Below are positions 765-46,915 of a stretch of DNA of 64,000 nucleotides, piece by piece (positions within the stretch are counted from its first letter, which is position 1; each line of letters opens with the position of its first letter). Position numbers and translations under genes: made by a program. The notes under the pieces were generated by a model. It saw only the letters and a list, made by a program, of their open reading frames with translations. It was not told the origin of the DNA and did no database searches. The stretch spans positions 26,459 to 90,458 of the forward strand of contig JAFCDX010000001.1 of NCBI GenBank assembly GCA_017609465.1. Direction: 5' to 3'. This stretch comes from Candidatus Woesearchaeota archaeon (GTDB taxonomy: Archaea; Nanobdellota; Nanobdellia; SCGC-AAA011-G17; JAFCDX01).

Positions 765-1525
765 CCAGTTTCACCTTCTATTGCAAATTGAAAAATATAA
801 TCTGAGTTTCTTTCATTTAATACATATATTTTATCAGGATATTCCTTTTGATCAACAAATATTTCAACTTCTCCTCTGTTAGCAATCATATAAGGTACAC
901 TTAAAAAAACACCATTGTTTGCTTCTTCATTAACTATATCATAAGTTGTATCTAATAATTTTCCCAAAGGATGGTCAATCAATTCAGAGAAATCCTTTAA
1001 TTCTACTCTTTTATCCCCTCTTTTCAAAGCAACAGGATAACTTACTTCCACAAAAACACCATTTTCTCTTATATCAACACTAGATTCAAATTCAGCATCT
1101 TCAATATCAGGAAAGAAATTTAATAATTGTTCTGACATACTTTCAACATCAACACATGAAGGAACTTCTGAATTCAAGTAATCTTCAATTTCTTTTTCAA
1201 CTTCATTCTCAAAAACCATGTTATTCAAACATTCAGGAGCATTTGGAATATTATAACATAAATAATTTACCCTATAACCATTATGCATTCTATAATTTTC
1301 AGGATTTATAGTTCCACCCTGCTTCCCAATTAACTCAGAAACCTCTTCTAATTTCTCCTGAGTGCATGCTTTTGCCTCTCTTTCAATAACATCTATTTTA
1401 TTACCCAAGTAACTTTGAGGATCAATTCCTATCCCAGCCTGTCTTAAAGCGAATATAAGTATTACAACAATCACTATCACCAATCCAATTATCATAAAAG
1501 TAGTTACTTGTCCTCTTTTTTTCAT
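761..1525 (-). CDS. Class III (prepilin-like) signal peptide protein, cassette copy 2
   Basis: The N-terminus MKKRGQVTTFMIIGLVIVIVVILIF has basic residues, then G-Q, then a hydrophobic helix, as in archaeal type IV prepilin signals. It is a paralog of 4871..5644 and 44952..45686. Confidence 0.7.
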   Translation of the reverse strand: MKKRGQVTTFMIIGLVIVIVVILIFALRQAGIGIDPQSYLGNKIDVIEREAKACTQEKLEEVSELIGKQGGTINPENYRMHNGYRVNYLCYNIPNAPECLNNMVFENEVEKEIEDYLNSEVPSCVDVESMSEQLLNFFPDIEDAEFESSVDIRENGVFVEVSYPVALKRGDKRVELKDFSELIDHPLGKLLDTTYDIVNEEANNGVFLSVPYMIANRGEVEIFVDQKEYPDKIYVLNERNSDYIFQFAIEGETG

Positions 1526-15032: not shown

Positions 15033-15392
15033 TTATAAACAGGCTCCGTTTGAGCATCCATTCTCACATAATTCAAACCTATAATTCCATATAACATTAT
15101 TTCCTGTACCTTTATTATAATCACAGTAATATTCTTTTACATATTTGCTTGTTTTTCCTGTATCTTTGTTTGATTTTTCAAAGCATATATCTGTTTTATC
15201 ATCATAAGAGACTCCTTTAGAATCTACCCCATAAACAGTTCCCTTTGAAAAAATGTCAACACCCTCATCAGTATCTACACAAGTTGAAGTGCTTACTTGC
15301 TTTCCTGTAACGCTTCCAAAAAATCCAGAATACGCAAATACAGATAGAACTAATATGATTAATATTCCTATTAATATCTCTTTATTATCCAT
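15033..15392 (-). CDS. Small secreted Cys6 protein, tandem paralog 4
   Basis: Leader ends ...SGFFGSVTGK, then CVDTDEG...DICF...EYYC...CENGCSNGACL-stop. Confidence 0.75.
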   Translation of the reverse strand: MDNKEILIGILIILVLSVFAYSGFFGSVTGKQVSTSTCVDTDEGVDIFSKGTVYGVDSKGVSYDDKTDICFEKSNKDTGKTSKYVKEYYCDYNKGTGNNVIWNYRFELCENGCSNGACL

Positions 15393-15451
15393 TTTAAATT
15401 AATAGTTTAAGAACTTATAAAACTTTCTAAAGAAAATAAAAAATAAAAAAT

Positions 15452-15775
15452 TTATAAGCATGCTCCGTTTGAACAGCCCTCGTCGCAAAGTACCATTTCA
15501 GATTTCCATCCAGATTCTGTCATTTTATCACATCTATATTCTTTAAGGTAACTTGAATCCTCTACAGAACAATAATCTACCATTGGACCGAAATCTTGTC
15601 CATTGTTAGAAGTTCCACTTACGCTACCTTTTACATATACATTTCCACCGTCAGTATCTGTACACTGCCATGTGGTTGCCTTTCCTGTTGTTCCTGAAAA
15701 AACACCTGTTGAGAATAAGACTGCTACAACAAGCAATACTACAAGCCCTATAATAACCATATCTTTGTTATCCAT
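15452..15775 (-). CDS. Small secreted Cys6 protein, tandem paralog 3
   Basis: Leader ends ...TGVFSGTTGK, then CTDTDGG...DYC...EYRC...CDEGCSNGACL-stop. Confidence 0.75.
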   Translation of the reverse strand: MDNKDMVIIGLVVLLVVAVLFSTGVFSGTTGKATTWQCTDTDGGNVYVKGSVSGTSNNGQDFGPMVDYCSVEDSSYLKEYRCDKMTESGWKSEMVLCDEGCSNGACL

Positions 15776-15823
15776 ATTAATAATTTAAACTTACTTTTAT
15801 ATATAAACTTTTCTAAATAAGGT

Positions 15824-16168
15824 TTATAGACAAGCTCCTGCTCTGCAACCATTTTCACAAAATACTCTGTTTCTTTTGTAACCCGATGCAATATAAGGAT
15901 CGCAAGTGTATTCAATTACCCATTTTCCATTATCCTTGTAATCTAGGGAACAAAAATCTTCATCATTAAAAAATTCTCTTTTAGATGAACCATCCACTGT
16001 TATATATCCTTTAATTTTTGATTGTTCAGCAAGACTAGGATTTGAGTCAGAATCAAAACATCCATGAGATATTTGTTTTCCAGTAATATCACTAAAGAAA
16101 CCTGCATAAGATAACACACCAATTGCAAACACAAGAATTATTCCTATAAAAATATTTTTTGAATTCAT
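15824..16168 (-). CDS. Small secreted Cys6 protein, tandem paralog 2
   Basis: Leader ends ...AGFFSDITGK, then CFDSDSN...DFC...EYTC...CENGCRAGACL-stop. I prefer ATG 16168 (ATGA overlap with the upstream stop) over the TTG at 16174. Confidence 0.75.
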   Translation of the reverse strand: MNSKNIFIGIILVFAIGVLSYAGFFSDITGKQISHGCFDSDSNPSLAEQSKIKGYITVDGSSKREFFNDEDFCSLDYKDNGKWVIEYTCDPYIASGYKRNRVFCENGCRAGACL

Positions 16169-16512
16169 AAACAAGCACCATCCTTACATCCATTTTCACA
16201 GTAAACAAGTTCAGACTTCCAGTTTTCTGTTGTAGTTATATCACATTTGTATTCCTTCAAATAATCTGGTCTTGAGTTATCACAATAATCTATTTTTGGT
16301 TCTAAATCTCTCCTACAATTATCTGTAACAAAATTTACTCTTCCTTTAACATAAATATTTCCTTGATCTGTGTCTTCACAAGAAGCAGAACAAAAACCAC
16401 TTACTTTTCCAGTTACCCATACAAATGCACCTGAAGTATAAAACAATGAAAAGAATAATACTACAACAAGAACAATGAACAGCTTCCTGTTTACTCCATG
16501 AATATTAACCAT
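16165..16512 (-). CDS. Small secreted Cys6 protein, tandem paralog 1
   Basis: Leader ends ...SGAFVWVTGK, then CEDTDQG...DYC...EYKC...CENGCKDGACL-stop. Confidence 0.75.
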   Translation of the reverse strand: MVNIHGVNRKLFIVLVVVLFFSLFYTSGAFVWVTGKVSGFCSASCEDTDQGNIYVKGRVNFVTDNCRRDLEPKIDYCDNSRPDYLKEYKCDITTTENWKSELVYCENGCKDGACL

Positions 16513-16546: not shown

Positions 16547-17638
16547 CTATCTTATTGGATATCTCAAAAGTGCTGCAATTCCACCCAAATCCTGCAATTG
16601 TTTCCCCTCTCTTGTTTCTGTAGAAATAATTCTTACTTCTGTTCTGAATTTGTCTGCTTCGTTTTCAAGATTTTCTATTTCTTTGTCATCCATTGAATCA
16701 GACAATAATAAAATGTCAACTGCACCCAATTCTAATGCTTTAATAGTTTCTTCTCTTCCATAAGTTATTTTAGCTTCTTCTTTTGCAAATGTTTCAAAAA
16801 ATTTCTGCATTATTTGTTTTTCAAGTGCAATTTCTTCTTCTGCTAAAAGCTCTTGTGATTTGTCAACCAATTCATTTAACCCAAATTCTCCTGTATAAGA
16901 TAAATCCTTTACACCAATTATTTTATTTTTTAATTGATTGTTAAGATAATTTCCGTCAATAAACATTTCTTTTGTTGGACCTGGACCCCCTATTATTATT
17001 CCCTTTAAATCAGGGTTATTCAGAAATTCCTTGTTTGCTGCCTCTCCTATTCTCTTGAAAAATTCATGTGTTGCTTCTTCTCTTAATCTTGCGTAACGTT
17101 GTTGTGATTGGCCTCCTTTTGTTGTTTTTCCTGGAACTCCTGAAGTCATGTGGAATAATTCCTCTATGTTTGTTCCTTTTAATAGTCCTATATTTCCTTC
17201 TCTTCTATCAAGAACTATCAAACCAAAAACTTCCTTTACTTCAATTAGTTCCTTTAAAGGTTCTAATAAAAATGTCTGGTCGCATCTGTAAATTCTCAGA
17301 TTTAAAGGTTCTGGAGGCTCAACACTAAATACTTTTATATCCACTTTGCTTTCTTTGTCAGAAATGTCTCCTGAGAATACTGCAAGGCCATTTTCAGGTG
17401 TTTTCTTAAAAGTTCTTAGATGTTGTATCATTTTTTCAATAGAATCAATTACTTTTGTTCTTGTATTCTTATCCTTAATGTTTTCTGCAGTTCCTTGTTC
17501 TTGTGCCAAATGCTGTATTATTTTGATAATATCATATCCAGGGGGAATATAAACAGAAACCAATTCAGTATGTCTTCCTTTTACTTTCTCCAATTCCATA
17601 ATGAATCTTCTTAATTTGTGTCTTTCTTTTATGTTCAT
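16547..17638 (-). CDS. prf1: Peptide chain release factor aRF1
   Basis: Has the GGQ motif (KGGQSQQRYARL) and YRCDQTF (YxCxxxF). The NIKS position reads NIKD. Length is 363 aa. Confidence 0.9.
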   Translation of the reverse strand: MNIKERHKLRRFIMELEKVKGRHTELVSVYIPPGYDIIKIIQHLAQEQGTAENIKDKNTRTKVIDSIEKMIQHLRTFKKTPENGLAVFSGDISDKESKVDIKVFSVEPPEPLNLRIYRCDQTFLLEPLKELIEVKEVFGLIVLDRREGNIGLLKGTNIEELFHMTSGVPGKTTKGGQSQQRYARLREEATHEFFKRIGEAANKEFLNNPDLKGIIIGGPGPTKEMFIDGNYLNNQLKNKIIGVKDLSYTGEFGLNELVDKSQELLAEEEIALEKQIMQKFFETFAKEEAKITYGREETIKALELGAVDILLLSDSMDDKEIENLENEADKFRTEVRIISTETREGKQLQDLGGIAALLRYPIR

Positions 17639-22066: not shown

Positions 22067-24448
22067 TTACGTATTGGTAGTTACAATATTAGTATTTAAA
22101 ATCACTTTAAATTCATTACCAAACCTAATTTCAGAAGCATTTGTAACTGCTTTCAAATCATCCAAAAATATACTCAATTTTTTATCAACAGTCAATTTAA
22201 CAGGCTCTTTAAGAGATTTATTATTCTCATTCTTGAATTTTCTTACCTTGGATATAACATCTATGAACTCATCTCCTAATTTTTCCAATTTATTTTTTGT
22301 TATTTTCATTTCTTTTGGCCATTCACTTATATGTATGCTTTTTTCTTTTTCTTTTTTGTCAAAATACAAATGATAGATTTCTTCTGTTATATGGGGCATT
22401 ATTGGTGCAAATAATTTTAATATTGTCAACAAAGAATGATACAAAGTATATTGTGCGCTTTTTCTTTTTTCTTTTCCTCTTTTGTCAGGATTATATAATC
22501 TATCCTTAACTATTTCTAAATAATTATCACAGAATGTATGCCAGAAAAATTCTTCACTTAATTTTCTTGCCATAGAAATATTATATTTAATATAATTTTC
22601 CTTTATGTTTTTAACAGTTTTTTCTAATTTCAATAAAGTATATTCATCAATAGGTTCTAATTTTGGTTTCTTTCTATCAAAATCTTCAAGATTCATGATA
22701 ACAAATTTTGAAGCATTCCACATTTTTGTCAGTAATTTCTGTCCTGCAATCAATTCTTTTTCATTAAATGGCAAATCACTTCCAAGATTAGCCCCTCCAA
22801 CCCAATATCTAAAAACATCAACACCATATTTATCAATCAAATCATCAGCACATATTGCATTTCCTTTGCTTTTGCTCATCCCATGCCCTTTTGAATCTAA
22901 TACAAAAGTATTTATTATGAGGTCTTTCCAAGGAATTCTTTTAAACAATAAATGACTTTTTAATATAGTATAAAATGCCCATGTTCTTATTATATCATGA
23001 GATTGAGGTCTTAAACTCATGGGTGCTAGTTTTTTGTATTGTTCTGGTTTTTCAAGCCATCTTAATGCAATTTCAGGGCTGTTTGAAGAAGTCATCCAGG
23101 TATCAAAAACATCTTCATCAGGAACTCCTTTTCCGCCACATTTGCATTTTTTCTTAACTTGTATCGGATCAATAGGCAATTCATTTTCCTCTGGAAGAAT
23201 TACTTCATGACATTTGTCACAATACCACACAGGAATTGGTATTCCAAAATATCTCTGCCTTGATATTGTCCAGTCCCATCCCAGGTTCTTAACCCAATCC
23301 TCATAACGAACCCTCATAAATTTAGGGTGCCAATCAACTTCTTTTCCTCTTTTTAATAATTCTTTCTTGTATTTTAATGTTTTAATAAGCCATTGGTCTG
23401 TAACAATATATTCAACAGGAGTATTACATCTCCAACAGCTTCCAACTGTTTGCTGCAATTCCTCTTGTTTTTCTAGTAATTCTTTTTCTTCTAAATCTTT
23501 TAGAATTTCCTCTCTTGCCTTTTCCAATTTCATTCCCTTGTATTTCCCGCCAAGTTCATTTAATTTTCCTTCTCTGTCAACAGATATTCTCAAGTCAAGA
23601 TTATATTTTTTCCATTTTTCAATATCAGCATTATCTCCAAATGTGCAAACCATCATAATACCTGTTCCAAACTCAGGATCAACAGTCTCATCCGCCATTA
23701 CTTTTACTTTATGATTAAATAAAGGGACTTCAATTTCCTTTCCAATTAATTTCTTGTATCTTTTATCTTCAGGGTGAACAAATATTCCTACACAACTAGA
23801 TAAGAATTCAGGTCTTGTTGTAGCAATTAATAAATCATTTCCGAATTTAATATAATTTAATTTTGTTGTTCTTGTTAAGTTTTCAACTTCTGCCTGTGCT
23901 AGTGCAGTTTCATGATACGGGCACCATATTGTAGGCTCTTTTGCTTTGTAACAATCTCCTTTTTTTACTAATTTTAAAAATGCTGTTTGTGCAACTCTTT
24001 GTGATTCAGGACTTATTGTCTGATATAATAAATCCCAATCATAACTATGTCCTAATTTCTTGAAAACATTTTCAGTATAAACTTTCTCAACTTTTTTTGA
24101 TTCTTCAAGACATAATTTTCTGAATTCTGCCCTGTTTGTTTTTGCCTTGTTTATTCCAAGTTTTTCTTCTACATATTTTTCTGTTGGCAATCCATTATCA
24201 TCATAACCAGGAGGAAAATAAACATTATAACCTAATAATCTCATTATTCTTGCTATTATTTCAAATTGGGTGTATGACAATGCATGTCCAACATGTAAAT
24301 GTCCTGCAGAAGCATAAGGTGGTGGAGTATCAATAGAATAAACGGGTTTTTTTGATTTTGGATTAAATTTGTATGTTTTGTTTTTATCCCAAAATTTCTG
24401 CCATTTCTTTTCTGATTCCTTGAAATCATATTGCTTTGGTAATTGCAT
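22067..24448 (-). CDS. valS: Valyl-tRNA synthetase
   Basis: A class Ia synthetase with PPPYASAGHLHVGH (HIGH region) and GMSKSKGN (KMSKS). It has an editing-domain-size insert and a ValRS-like N-terminus YDFKESEKKWQKFW. Confidence 0.8.
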   Translation of the reverse strand: MQLPKQYDFKESEKKWQKFWDKNKTYKFNPKSKKPVYSIDTPPPYASAGHLHVGHALSYTQFEIIARIMRLLGYNVYFPPGYDDNGLPTEKYVEEKLGINKAKTNRAEFRKLCLEESKKVEKVYTENVFKKLGHSYDWDLLYQTISPESQRVAQTAFLKLVKKGDCYKAKEPTIWCPYHETALAQAEVENLTRTTKLNYIKFGNDLLIATTRPEFLSSCVGIFVHPEDKRYKKLIGKEIEVPLFNHKVKVMADETVDPEFGTGIMMVCTFGDNADIEKWKKYNLDLRISVDREGKLNELGGKYKGMKLEKAREEILKDLEEKELLEKQEELQQTVGSCWRCNTPVEYIVTDQWLIKTLKYKKELLKRGKEVDWHPKFMRVRYEDWVKNLGWDWTISRQRYFGIPIPVWYCDKCHEVILPEENELPIDPIQVKKKCKCGGKGVPDEDVFDTWMTSSNSPEIALRWLEKPEQYKKLAPMSLRPQSHDIIRTWAFYTILKSHLLFKRIPWKDLIINTFVLDSKGHGMSKSKGNAICADDLIDKYGVDVFRYWVGGANLGSDLPFNEKELIAGQKLLTKMWNASKFVIMNLEDFDRKKPKLEPIDEYTLLKLEKTVKNIKENYIKYNISMARKLSEEFFWHTFCDNYLEIVKDRLYNPDKRGKEKRKSAQYTLYHSLLTILKLFAPIMPHITEEIYHLYFDKKEKEKSIHISEWPKEMKITKNKLEKLGDEFIDVISKVRKFKNENNKSLKEPVKLTVDKKLSIFLDDLKAVTNASEIRFGNEFKVILNTNIVTTNT

Positions 24449-24470
24449 ATTTTATATTTTTAATTAGAAA

Positions 24471-24480
24471 TATTTAAATA
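24471..24480. promoter_or_regulatory. Near-palindromic TATTTAAATA box in the 56-nt divergent spacer between valS and tRNA-Phe
   Basis: It lies 23 nt from the valS ATG (24448) and 25 nt from tRNA position 1 (24505). Confidence 0.45.
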
Positions 24481-24535
24481 TAGTGGTTTTAATCATGAGA
24501 ATATGGGACAGTAGCTCAACCTGGGAGAGCACCAG

Positions 24536-24549
24536 TTATATAAGGTGAA
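24536..24549 (+). other. tRNA intron 1 (14 nt, between positions 30/31)
   Basis: A 4-bp helix pairs 24530-24533 (CACC) with 24544-24547 (GGTG). Both cut sites lie 2 nt 3' of the helix strands. The 3' bulge is AA|A. Confidence 0.7.
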
Positions 24550-24556
24550 ACTGAAG

Positions 24557-24568
24557 TCTCAGGCAGTT
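24557..24568 (+). other. tRNA intron 2 (12 nt, canonical 37/38 position)
   Basis: The helix pairs 24551-24554 (CTGA) with 24563-24566 (GCAG): 3 bp plus one A.G. Both cut sites lie 2 nt 3' of the helix strands. Confidence 0.65.
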
Positions 24569-24577
24569 ATCTGGGTG

Positions 24578-24607
24578 AAAAATATAACAAAGGTATATTT
24601 TCCCGAA
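24578..24607 (+). other. tRNA intron 3 (30 nt, variable loop 46/47)
   Basis: The central helix pairs 24572-24575 (TGGG) with 24602-24605 (CCCG). The 5' bulge is TG|A. An 8-bp intron hairpin pairs 24579-24586 with 24594-24601. The 3' bulge is AA|T. Confidence 0.7.
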
Positions 24608-24644
24608 TTGTGGGTTCAAATCCCACCTGTCCCACTTTCAAAAA

Positions 24645-45688: not shown

Positions 45689-46915
45689 TTATTTCTTATT
45701 CTTAGATTTTTTTAAAGGTTTCTTTTTAATAGATGTTTTTCTTAATGCGTAATTAACAGGATTTTTTATCATTTTGCATAAATTGTCGGAATCACAAATC
45801 CCATATGACTTGTAATAGGATTCATTTTCACAGTTTGCAGGTAATACTTTATTAGACTGTTTTTTGTGCCATTCTATCTGTGTTCTTATATAACCCTCTT
45901 TCAATGGCTGGTAATTTTTTGAATTCCATTTTTGGATAAGATTTTCAATTTCTTCAAAATCCCAGTTAACACTCCTCAAGAAATTAATCAATAAGAATAA
46001 TGATCTTTTCCTTCCATCAGAAGGAATTCCTTTTAGTATTTTTGAAATGCATGGGGGGAAATTCTCTTCAGGCACCTTGCCGGTATATCTTTCATAAGAA
46101 CCAACATCTTTCTTTTCTTTCTTGACTTCAATAAGGCTTTGATTTTTTATTCCCCAATCATAAGATTGTATCAACAGATTTCTGGCAGAACCTTTTTCAA
46201 CATTTTTTGTATCTAAAAATCTTAAATTAACTTTAACGTTTTCTGGTTTTGCATCTTCTATTTTAAAACTTTCAACATCTTTTATAGGTATGCTTATCAA
46301 TCCTGATTTTTCATTTAAGGAATATGGAGAACGAAACATATGTCTTGAAGATATTAAAACAGAATCAATATCAACTAATGAGAATGGATCCTCTTTGTTT
46401 AATTTCTCAATTAAAAAAGGTTTTATCATATCTTTAAGATAATTTGCAACATTTCTCACTAAATCAGGAAATAATAGGTTAATATTTTCTCCTTTTAATT
46501 TATCTGGAAATGCCTCATAAGGGATTCCTATATGAAATCCTTTATTTCCAGAAAATTTTATTGAATAATCCTTGACATCATGAAATTTTAATGCATCTAT
46601 GATTAATTTTGCTGTTATTTTTGAATAATTCAAATCATCTGAATCTATATCCAATATAAGATCCCATCCTTTTCTCAATTCATCTAAATCCTTTTTTGAC
46701 ATCCCTGATTTTAGATTCAATGGATCGTGCCATCTTTCTTCAGAAACATGAAATGATGTCATCCCCTGCCTTATAAAAGAATCAATGTCACTTTGATAAT
46801 TCACGCTTTCAGGCCTCTTTCCTCTTATATCTCTAACCCATATTTGAACTTCCCTATCTTTGGAAATTCTCAAAAGTTCTTTCTTTATGTCCTCTCTAGA
46901 ATAATAATCCCTCAT
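45689..46915 (-). CDS. priS: DNA primase, fused PriS catalytic domain plus PriL-CTD-like Cys4 domain
   Basis: AEP motifs are LILDIDSDD, SGNKGFHIGIPY and SRHMFRSPYSLNEKSG. The C-terminal part has FPPCISKIL plus three further Cys (ANC, GIC, NLC). Confidence 0.75.
   Translation of the reverse strand: MRDYYSREDIKKELLRISKDREVQIWVRDIRGKRPESVNYQSDIDSFIRQGMTSFHVSEERWHDPLNLKSGMSKKDLDELRKGWDLILDIDSDDLNYSKITAKLIIDALKFHDVKDYSIKFSGNKGFHIGIPYEAFPDKLKGENINLLFPDLVRNVANYLKDMIKPFLIEKLNKEDPFSLVDIDSVLISSRHMFRSPYSLNEKSGLISIPIKDVESFKIEDAKPENVKVNLRFLDTKNVEKGSARNLLIQSYDWGIKNQSLIEVKKEKKDVGSYERYTGKVPEENFPPCISKILKGIPSDGRKRSLFLLINFLRSVNWDFEEIENLIQKWNSKNYQPLKEGYIRTQIEWHKKQSNKVLPANCENESYYKSYGICDSDNLCKMIKNPVNYALRKTSIKKKPLKKSKNKK

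Follow-up and report, generated by a model that had tools for sequence, protein, structure and literature searches.

A predicted tRNA-Phe(GAA) gene with three closely spaced bulge-helix-bulge-type introns in a DPANN archaeon

In the canonical splicing motif of archaeal pre-tRNA a 4-bp helix is flanked by 3-nt bulges, two in number, each of which is cut behind its second base. Here we describe a locus, at positions 24505-24634 (+) of a 64-kb stretch of DNA from a Candidatus Woesearchaeota archaeon (the whole of which we refer to as the window), that is very probably an expressed tRNA-Phe(GAA) gene of a DPANN archaeon of ~30% G+C, containing three introns of this bulge-helix-bulge (BHB) type at tRNA positions 30/31, 37/38 and 46/47, as first proposed in a reading of the sequence alone (hereafter the original prediction). 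Tri-intronic archaeal tRNAs are indeed known, as that reading had stated, and are described mainly in the Thermoproteales, where pre-tRNA-Glu(UUC) of Pyrobaculum calidifontis, as well as pre-tRNA-Pro(UGG) of P. islandicum, carries three BHB introns, the maximum number described per tRNA gene (PMC4390854, PMC4033280, PMC3218864). Relaxed versions of the motif, designated HBh', hBH and BHL (bulge-helix-loop), and the enzymes that cut them have been well studied (PMC5829648, PMC12397907). Introns of the hBH and BHL types are found in ARMAN-2 (Micrarchaeota), for example at 59/60 of pre-tRNA-Cys(GCA), and are cut by an epsilon2 form of the splicing endonuclease EndA (PMC3239211, PMC5829648, PMC12397907). 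The EndA enzymes of DPANN archaea are of the alpha4, (alpha-beta)2 or epsilon2 type with L3 or L2 loops, those of crenarchaea (alpha-beta)2 enzymes with an L1 loop (PMC5829648). In Methanopyrus kandleri pre-tRNA-Glu(UUC) a canonical intron is accompanied by an HBh' intron in the D loop, and experiments indicate that their removal can be ordered and unequally efficient (PMC5829648). Up to three short ectopic introns that depend on BHB-like motifs also occur in nuclear or nucleomorph tRNA genes of Cyanidioschyzon merolae and a second alga (PMC4090602, PMC3728597). The DPANN survey of Kaneta et al. (2018), which includes one Pacearchaeota and one Woesearchaeota genome, uses a 'multiple introns' class, reports alpha4 EndAs with the L3 loop and takes incomplete tRNA sets to point to undetected disrupted genes. 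In the literature that we searched the multi-intron tRNAs of this clade are nowhere described in detail.

The window locus joins a layout that is rare, though previously described. Like the Thermoproteales examples it has three BHB-type introns in a colinear gene, one of them canonical and the others non-canonical, with relaxed motifs. It differs from them in that the host is a low-G+C DPANN archaeon of the Nanoarchaeota type and not a hyperthermophilic crenarchaeon, in that the EndA would likely be of another type, and in that its introns are all confined to 17 nt of the mature tRNA (positions 30-47) and leave internal exons of 7 and 9 nt. It is this clustering, together with the short exons, that is unusual. 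With ARMAN-2 the locus shares a DPANN affiliation and, by prediction, relaxed bulge-helix-loop motifs outside the anticodon loop, and two of its relatives described below (L009 and L008) also have introns at 59/60; the phylum and the tRNA are different, however, and the window gene has three introns. The combination of a canonical intron at 37/38 with a non-canonical HBh' intron recalls M. kandleri pre-tRNA-Glu(UUC), although there the canonical one of two introns is removed first, whereas in the window gene, with three, the structure suggests that it would be removed last. The algal genes are eukaryotic, are served by a different endonuclease complex and have an unrelated origin.

The coordinates and sequences proposed for the locus were checked against the window and agree exactly. 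Excision in silico of the three introns gives back an intact tRNA, as expected for introns of the BHB type, with predicted junctions CCAG-ACUGAAG-AUCUGGGUG-UUGUGGG (hyphens mark the joins; standard tRNA numbering is used throughout, with one additional D-loop base, 17a). The 74-nt product is a letter-for-letter match to the string given in the original prediction and folds into a perfect cloverleaf of -29.8 kcal/mol, having a 7-bp acceptor stem, a 4-bp D stem, a 5-bp anticodon stem, a 5-bp T stem and a 7-nt anticodon loop with U33, the anticodon GAA and a purine at position 37. ARAGORN recognizes it as tRNA-Phe(gaa). G20, G34-A35-A36 and A73 are identity elements for Phe; all are present, as is the 15-48 tertiary pair, while CCA is absent from the encoded 3' end. 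The unspliced locus is matched by RF00005 over exactly 24505-24634 with 43.2 bits (gathering score 29), which bears out the claim of perfect acceptor, D and T arms; the alignment passes over the anticodon arm by means of a 39-nt local gap and a 31-nt insertion. Elsewhere in the window a search for other tRNAs using Rfam at E <= 1, G+C islands and the T-loop motif found none, and ARAGORN run over all 64 kb reports 0 tRNA genes. Since all four exons are colinear inside 130 nt, this is neither a split nor a permuted tRNA gene. Group I and group II introns comprise a catalytic RNA that has a conserved core and measures about 200 nt or more; those considered here are 12-30 nt long, have no Rfam intron matches and do not belong to either self-splicing class.

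The evidence that carries this assignment comes from homology. The locus was aligned, by a procedure that allows for introns, to a profile built from seven intron-free tRNA-Phe genes of related archaea; long gaps are charged a flat cost, and no structural information enters. Of these seven genes three have the same genes on both sides as the window tRNA, and a further one directly precedes the homologue of the downstream gene. The introns so delimited run, in locus numbering, from junction 31/32 to 45/46, from 52/53 to 64/65 and from 73/74 to 103/104, corresponding to 30/31, 37/38 and 46/47 and thus exactly to the junctions, and the spliced tRNA-Phe(GAA), of the original prediction. A MAFFT alignment to intron-free orthologues was dropped, as it placed all 56 extra bases in one gap and misaligned the anticodon arm. 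Over the spliced anticodon arm and variable loop, CCAGACTGAAGATCTGGGTGTT, 22 of 22 nt are identical in the related loci L015, L014/L004 and L009. This 22-mer can be obtained in one way only with three deletions or fewer, and none of 5000 shuffles yields it. Scans of genome and metagenome contigs with the 5' exon pattern turned up relatives, none with the same introns, including intron-free tRNA-Phe genes reading ...GAGCACCAGACTGAAGATCTGGGTGTT... in L004, L014 and L015. Overall, 58-67 of the 74 bases of the spliced product are identical in comparisons with 12 relatives. The 15-48 (Levitt) pair is either A-U or G-C, and covaries, in 13 of 13 genes; the proposed A15-U48 pair of the window product, where U48 follows just after intron 3, fits this pattern. 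A second contig, L001, is 99.8% identical to the window over 14.4 kb and carries the same 130-nt locus without a single difference. It is to be regarded as an independent assembly because the two differ by 30 substitutions over 14.4 kb.

All three of the 4-bp helices that had been proposed, one for each intron, are present. In intron 1 CACC (24530-24533; C25-A26-C27-C28) faces GGTG (24544-24547; GGUG in the RNA) with 4 of 4 pairs, in intron 2 CTGA (24551-24554; C32-U33-G34-A35) faces GCAG (24563-24566) with 3 of 4 pairs and one A.G, and in intron 3 TGGG (24572-24575; U41-G44) faces CCCG (24602-24605) with 4 of 4 pairs, one of them G.U. In each case both cuts fall 2 nt 3' of the strands of the central helix, in accord with the canonical geometry and with an internal calibration from the introns of the relatives, which follow the same rule. 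Beyond the central helix the three are not alike. Intron 3 conforms in its predicted pairing to a textbook HBh' motif, with a 3-nt 5' bulge (TG↓A, the arrow marking the cut) followed by a perfect 8-bp inner helix, AAAATATA (24579-24586) with TATATTTT (24594-24601), and with no outer helix. Introns 1 and 2 have no inner helix h', the 5' cut lying inside a loop of 10 nt in the former and of 8 nt in the latter; the outer helix of intron 1 amounts to at most 2 bp, and in intron 2 it is the anticodon stem, when formed, that closes the 3' bulge, UU↓A38. A 3-nt bulge closed by a second helix is therefore found in intron 3 as it stands, in intron 2 after formation of the anticodon stem and in intron 1 possibly by way of the 2-bp outer helix. 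The original prediction was right that introns 1 and 2 are of a relaxed form, but it had them lacking the outer helix; what they lack is the inner one, giving a bulge-helix-loop, and the intron with no outer helix is intron 3.

The helices had also been put forward as independent evidence for the junctions, an argument that does not suffice by itself. In the 78-nt stretch bounded by A26 and the T stem we enumerated all ways of deleting no more than three segments, accepting as a solution a 5-bp anticodon stem with a 7-nt loop containing U33 and R37. No solution with a canonical anticodon arm exists for one or two deletions in the full enumeration, and with three deletions there are 257 that are compatible with the cloverleaf. 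Only the original prediction and two variants of it with intron 3 displaced by one base have helices at all junctions (at least 3 of 4 pairs, cuts 2 nt 3'). Yet dinucleotide shuffling of this 78-nt middle (2000 sequences) leaves some helix-compatible solution of no more than three introns, with a canonical anticodon arm, in 44% of cases, one equal in quality to that observed (a single unpaired position or none over all helices) in 8.3%, and one with GAA in 2.4%. Because shuffles succeed so often the helix argument cannot carry the case alone; BHB geometry unaided is weak and statistically unpersuasive, and it is homology that makes the case. Once the junctions are fixed independently by homology the helix test does become meaningful, and 11 of the 12 central-helix positions pair, with P = 1.9e-4 relative to all window positions and P = 7e-5 within the locus.

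The locus lies in a conserved neighborhood. In the window the order is valyl-tRNA synthetase (ValRS), tRNA-Phe, a pilin-like gene and cysteinyl-tRNA synthetase (CysRS), and the same order is found in L020/L021 and, as far as the pilin-like gene, in L027, in each case with an intron-free tRNA-Phe. Further tRNA-Phe loci, most of them with this neighborhood, were reached via homologues of the pilin-like gene just downstream of the window tRNA. The intron-free tRNA-Phe of L015 is directly upstream of the pilin-like gene, the only neighbor that it shares with the window, and that of L025, also intron-free, is separated from the pilin-like gene by another gene. L016-L019, reached via ValRS homologues, have no adjoining tRNA-Phe. 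Introns do occur in the tRNA-Phe genes of other relatives, seven of them in nine occurrences at six loci (L024, L022, L023, L006, L009/L013, L008) and at five sites (18/19, 46/47, 53/54 twice, 59/60), with junctions set by intron-free homologues. Every one of them has its cuts 2 nt 3' of the strands of a 4-bp helix, the boundary in L008 being first shifted by one base, as its sequence allows, and in most the intron closes with AA at the cut. The gene, its junctions, the geometry of its helices, its orthology and its synteny are in this manner established in silico.

Several of these relatives deserve a description of their own. In L024 a tRNA-Phe at 1181-1327 (+) has three introns, at 18/19 (22 nt), 46/47 (29 nt) and 53/54 (22 nt), each with a 4-bp central helix and an inner helix; Rfam at the gathering threshold does not detect this gene. 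L022 (1-137) holds a partial copy of it that is cut off at the 5' end, and the tRNA-Phe of L023 (1192-1287, -), which is inverted relative to the pilin-like gene, contains the 18/19 D-loop intron only. A free-standing 305-residue open reading frame (ORF) of L024 (225-1142, +) has a LAGLIDADG_3 homing-endonuclease-like domain (35.9 bits, above cutoff) and lies upstream of the three-intron tRNA-Phe, stopping 38 nt before it, where the window, L020 and L027 have ValRS. L006 and L009 are from metagenome-assembled genomes labelled Woesearchaeota. In L006 the tRNA-Phe at 1418-1515 has one non-canonical T-arm intron at 53/54. One T-arm intron each, at 59/60, is present in the tRNA-Phe genes of L009 (4090-4205, the same as L013) and L008 (305-418); these two introns are clearly homologous. 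The L008 contig, whose bin bears the name of a bacterium, Saccharibacteria, is probably mis-binned.

The processing pathway that we infer for the window gene, from transcription through cleavage and ligation to the order of splicing, can be outlined as follows. Transcription would start from a TATA box at 24473-24480, part of a box that we predict from its sequence to be the promoter; at equal distance upstream of the orthologous tRNA-Phe genes of L020, L024, L023, L025 and L027 there is likewise a box of the form AGAAA(T/C)-TTTAAA/TTTATA. EndA cleavage, ligation and CCA addition are established steps of the pathway. In the present case EndA would recognize the 4-bp helix of each intron and cut 2 nt 3' of each strand, an RNA ligase would link the exons, of 31, 7, 9 and 27 nt, to give the 74-nt tRNA, and addition of CCA would follow. 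In introns 1 and 3 alike the central helix occupies one strand of the anticodon stem, and the two helices are mutually compatible. These two introns would likely be removed first and intron 2 last, because the latter needs the assembled anticodon stem for an outer helix. When the precursor is folded to its minimum free energy, introns 1 and 3 both show their central helix and intron 3 shows its inner one as well, with ensemble probabilities of ~0.28 for the central helix of intron 1 and of ~0.7 and 0.6-0.9 for the central and inner helices of intron 3. With introns 1 and 3 removed, the fold that combines the cloverleaf and its anticodon stem with the intron 2 helix is 1.2 kcal/mol above the minimum. 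In the same minimum-free-energy fold of the precursor UCUCAGG of intron 2 (24557-24563) pairs over 7 bp with CCUGGGA of the D loop (24520-24526), a pairing that by a rough estimate is at about chance level and that could compete with a splicing-competent fold.

A number of observations speak against an expressed and spliced tRNA-Phe gene and have to be weighed. The helix of intron 2 has a probability of ~0 in the primary transcript and contains the A.G mismatch, and a perfect hairpin, CTGA/TCAG (24551-54 / 24559-62), competes with it and would misplace the cut. Introns 1 and 2 are of very small size and relaxed form, neither has an inner helix, and the outer helix of intron 1 is only 2 bp. No relatives were found that share introns 1 and 2 and would show covariation in their helices. 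A scan of 30 window ORFs for EndA (tRNA_int_endo, Pfam) was negative. The junctions and the processing of the pre-tRNA are, moreover, predictions, and with the 64-kb window as the part of the genome examined, a second, intact tRNA-Phe gene elsewhere is possible. Such a gene is what would be expected were the locus a decaying pseudogene whose anticodon arm had been wrecked by three insertions. The limited view of the genome leaves room for this explanation, as do the failure of standard finders (ARAGORN reports nothing, Rfam a match that omits the anticodon arm) and the frequency with which helix-compatible three-intron solutions arise by chance in shuffles. Decay is nevertheless hard to reconcile with 74 exon bases that are all intact and stems that are all perfect once spliced, or with insertions placed such that their excision restores a 22-mer identical to that of the relatives, and there are helices at all three homology-defined junctions (P ~2e-4). 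The orthologous position of the gene and its promoter box have been retained, and interrupted tRNA-Phe genes recur in the clade, that of L024 having three introns too. Small DPANN genomes, finally, normally have one gene per tRNA. On balance we judge a pseudogene improbable.

A tRNA-Phe gene with these three introns must also be set against other ways of processing the same transcript, with different junctions or into a different tRNA. ARAGORN run with -i on the precursor does return a tRNA-Leu(aag) with one 37-nt intron, i(43,37), and the 257 cloverleaf-compatible three-deletion solutions offer many more candidates. The tRNA-Leu was rejected, as its D arm is broken (2 pairs left), its anticodon stem consists of A/T pairs only, its long variable arm is improvised and there is no helix at the junction. 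Given that the Phe solution alone provides a helix for every junction, and that it alone reproduces the sequence of the orthologues, in one unique way, there is in our view very little chance that the locus is processed otherwise. The source of the window is a metagenome assembly, and such contigs can raise the question of a chimera or other assembly artefact; with the identical 130-nt locus on the independent contig L001, and introns of similar style in related loci from other samples, this explanation has next to no credibility. Exons, introns and the upstream element, together with the introns of the relatives, are collected in Table 1.

Table 1. Features of the tRNA-Phe(GAA) locus (window coordinates) and sites and central helices of the introns in tRNA-Phe genes of relatives (tRNA positions); an arrow marks a predicted cut
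Feature	Location	Strand	Description	Basis
Predicted promoter element	24466-24480	+	box resembling the transcription factor B recognition element, AGAAAT, and TATA box TTTAAATA (24473-24480); begins ~39 nt upstream of tRNA 5' end	read from sequence
Exon 1	24505-24535	+	31 nt; tRNA positions 1-30: acceptor 5' strand, D arm, A26, anticodon-stem CCAG	Rfam and profile alignment
Intron 1	24536-24549	+	14 nt; position 30/31; bulge-helix-loop type; cuts AG↓T and AA↓A	
Exon 2	24550-24556	+	7 nt; A31, then C32-U33-G34-A35-A36-G37; holds GAA anticodon	
Intron 2	24557-24568	+	12 nt; canonical position 37/38; 3' bulge TT↓A	
Exon 3	24569-24577	+	9 nt; A38, UCUGG (39-43), GUG (44-46)	
Intron 3	24578-24607	+	30 nt; position 46/47; HBh' type; cuts TG↓A and AA↓T	
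Exon 4	24608-24634	+	27 nt; U47, U48, T arm, acceptor 3' strand, discriminator A73	Rfam and profile alignment
Intron of L024/L022/L023	18/19		central helix AGCC/GGCT	
Intron of L024/L022	46/47		central helix TGGA/GCCA	
Intron of L024/L022	53/54		central helix CGTG/CATG	
Intron of L006	53/54		central helix TCAG/CTGA	
Intron of L009/L013	59/60		central helix TTCA/TGAC	
Intron of L008	59/60		central helix TTCA/TGAC	

The comparison of orthologous and mostly syntenic tRNA-Phe genes, with 0, 1 or 3 introns at 18/19, 30/31, 37/38, 46/47, 53/54 and 59/60, raises the matter of how the introns have come and gone. Sites 46/47 and 53/54 are each occupied in separate lineages. At 46/47 the introns of the window and of L024 agree in position and architecture and show a weak sequence similarity (P ~0.008 overall, 0.046 for the core), by which homology between them is weakly supported; parsimony on the basis of neighbor-gene identities allows either two gains or one gain and two losses. 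Within the window gene the original prediction had pointed to near-duplicate segments at 24533-24550 (CAGTTATATAAGGTGAAA) and 24564-24580 (CAGTTATCTGGGTGAAA) as a hint at the origin of the introns. The segments are there, with 15 matches, 2 mismatches and 1 gap, but the hint proves weak: their score, which includes flanking exon bases, is reached by 17 of 1000 shuffles (P ~0.017), intron 1 alone compared with the rest of the gene gives P = 0.15, and neither the other two window introns nor six introns of relatives (L024, L009, L006, L008) show any similarity to their own genes (P 0.55-0.99). The splice sites are at non-equivalent places in the two copies, which argues against a shared functional constraint and slightly favors a common origin. 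Were intron 1 duplicated from the segment that includes the 3' strand of the anticodon stem, its central helix would arise automatically. An origin of the introns by duplication is accordingly suggested by the sequence as a hint and not as a finding. A joint reading, by which the tRNA-Phe locus of the clade would be a hot spot of fast intron turnover, with obligatorily ordered splicing and with an intron 1 born by local duplication, we consider doubtful.

The remainder of the window is in keeping with its archaeal source. At ~30% G+C it encodes a class I lysyl-tRNA synthetase, PCNA, Hjc, Cbf5, eRF1, a fused PriS-PriL primase and archaeal ribosomal proteins, and the named homologues of its ValRS are from Nanoarchaeota, Pacearchaeota or Woesearchaeota. 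Its gene content thereby identifies the window as archaeal and of the DPANN type, within the Nanoarchaeota / Pacearchaeota-Woesearchaeota group. The ValRS (22067-24448, -) is 51-53% identical to the syntenic ValRS of L020 (7425-9803) and L027 (402-2789) and 73% identical to ValRS proteins in a different neighborhood (P0002; L016-L019), while the pilin-like protein is 70% identical to that of L020; these identities suggest either that the ValRS gene has been replaced in place or that evolutionary rates have been very uneven. The single 408-residue ORF at 45689-46915 (-) has matches to the domain of the small DNA primase subunit (PF01896) as well as to that of the large one (PF04104) and is therefore a fused PriS-PriL primase. 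The eRF1 genes of L019 (7128-8624) and L027 (1-399, continuing past the locus) have intein / LAGLIDADG Pfam matches, and that of the window (16547-17638) is intein-free. Four tandem paralogous ORFs of 107-119 residues at 15033-16512 (-) have similar N-terminal membrane segments and a common '...TGK' motif. Two G+C-rich intergenic stretches, read in the search for further tRNAs, resemble small minus-strand genes.

The locus shows that an essential tRNA can escape routine annotation, ARAGORN finding no gene and Rfam being blind to the anticodon. Genes of this kind would explain some of the 'missing tRNAs' of DPANN genomes, as anticipated previously (PMC5829648), and would affect estimates of completeness and inferences about codon usage. 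The splicing endonuclease of the lineage would, by implication, accept very short and relaxed motifs, and the precursor, with three sites and micro-exons of 7 and 9 nt in 130 nt, is a compact natural substrate for the study of cleavage specificity and order. Finally, a single syntenic locus whose orthologues have 0, 1 or 3 introns amounts to a small natural experiment on how archaeal tRNA introns are gained and lost.

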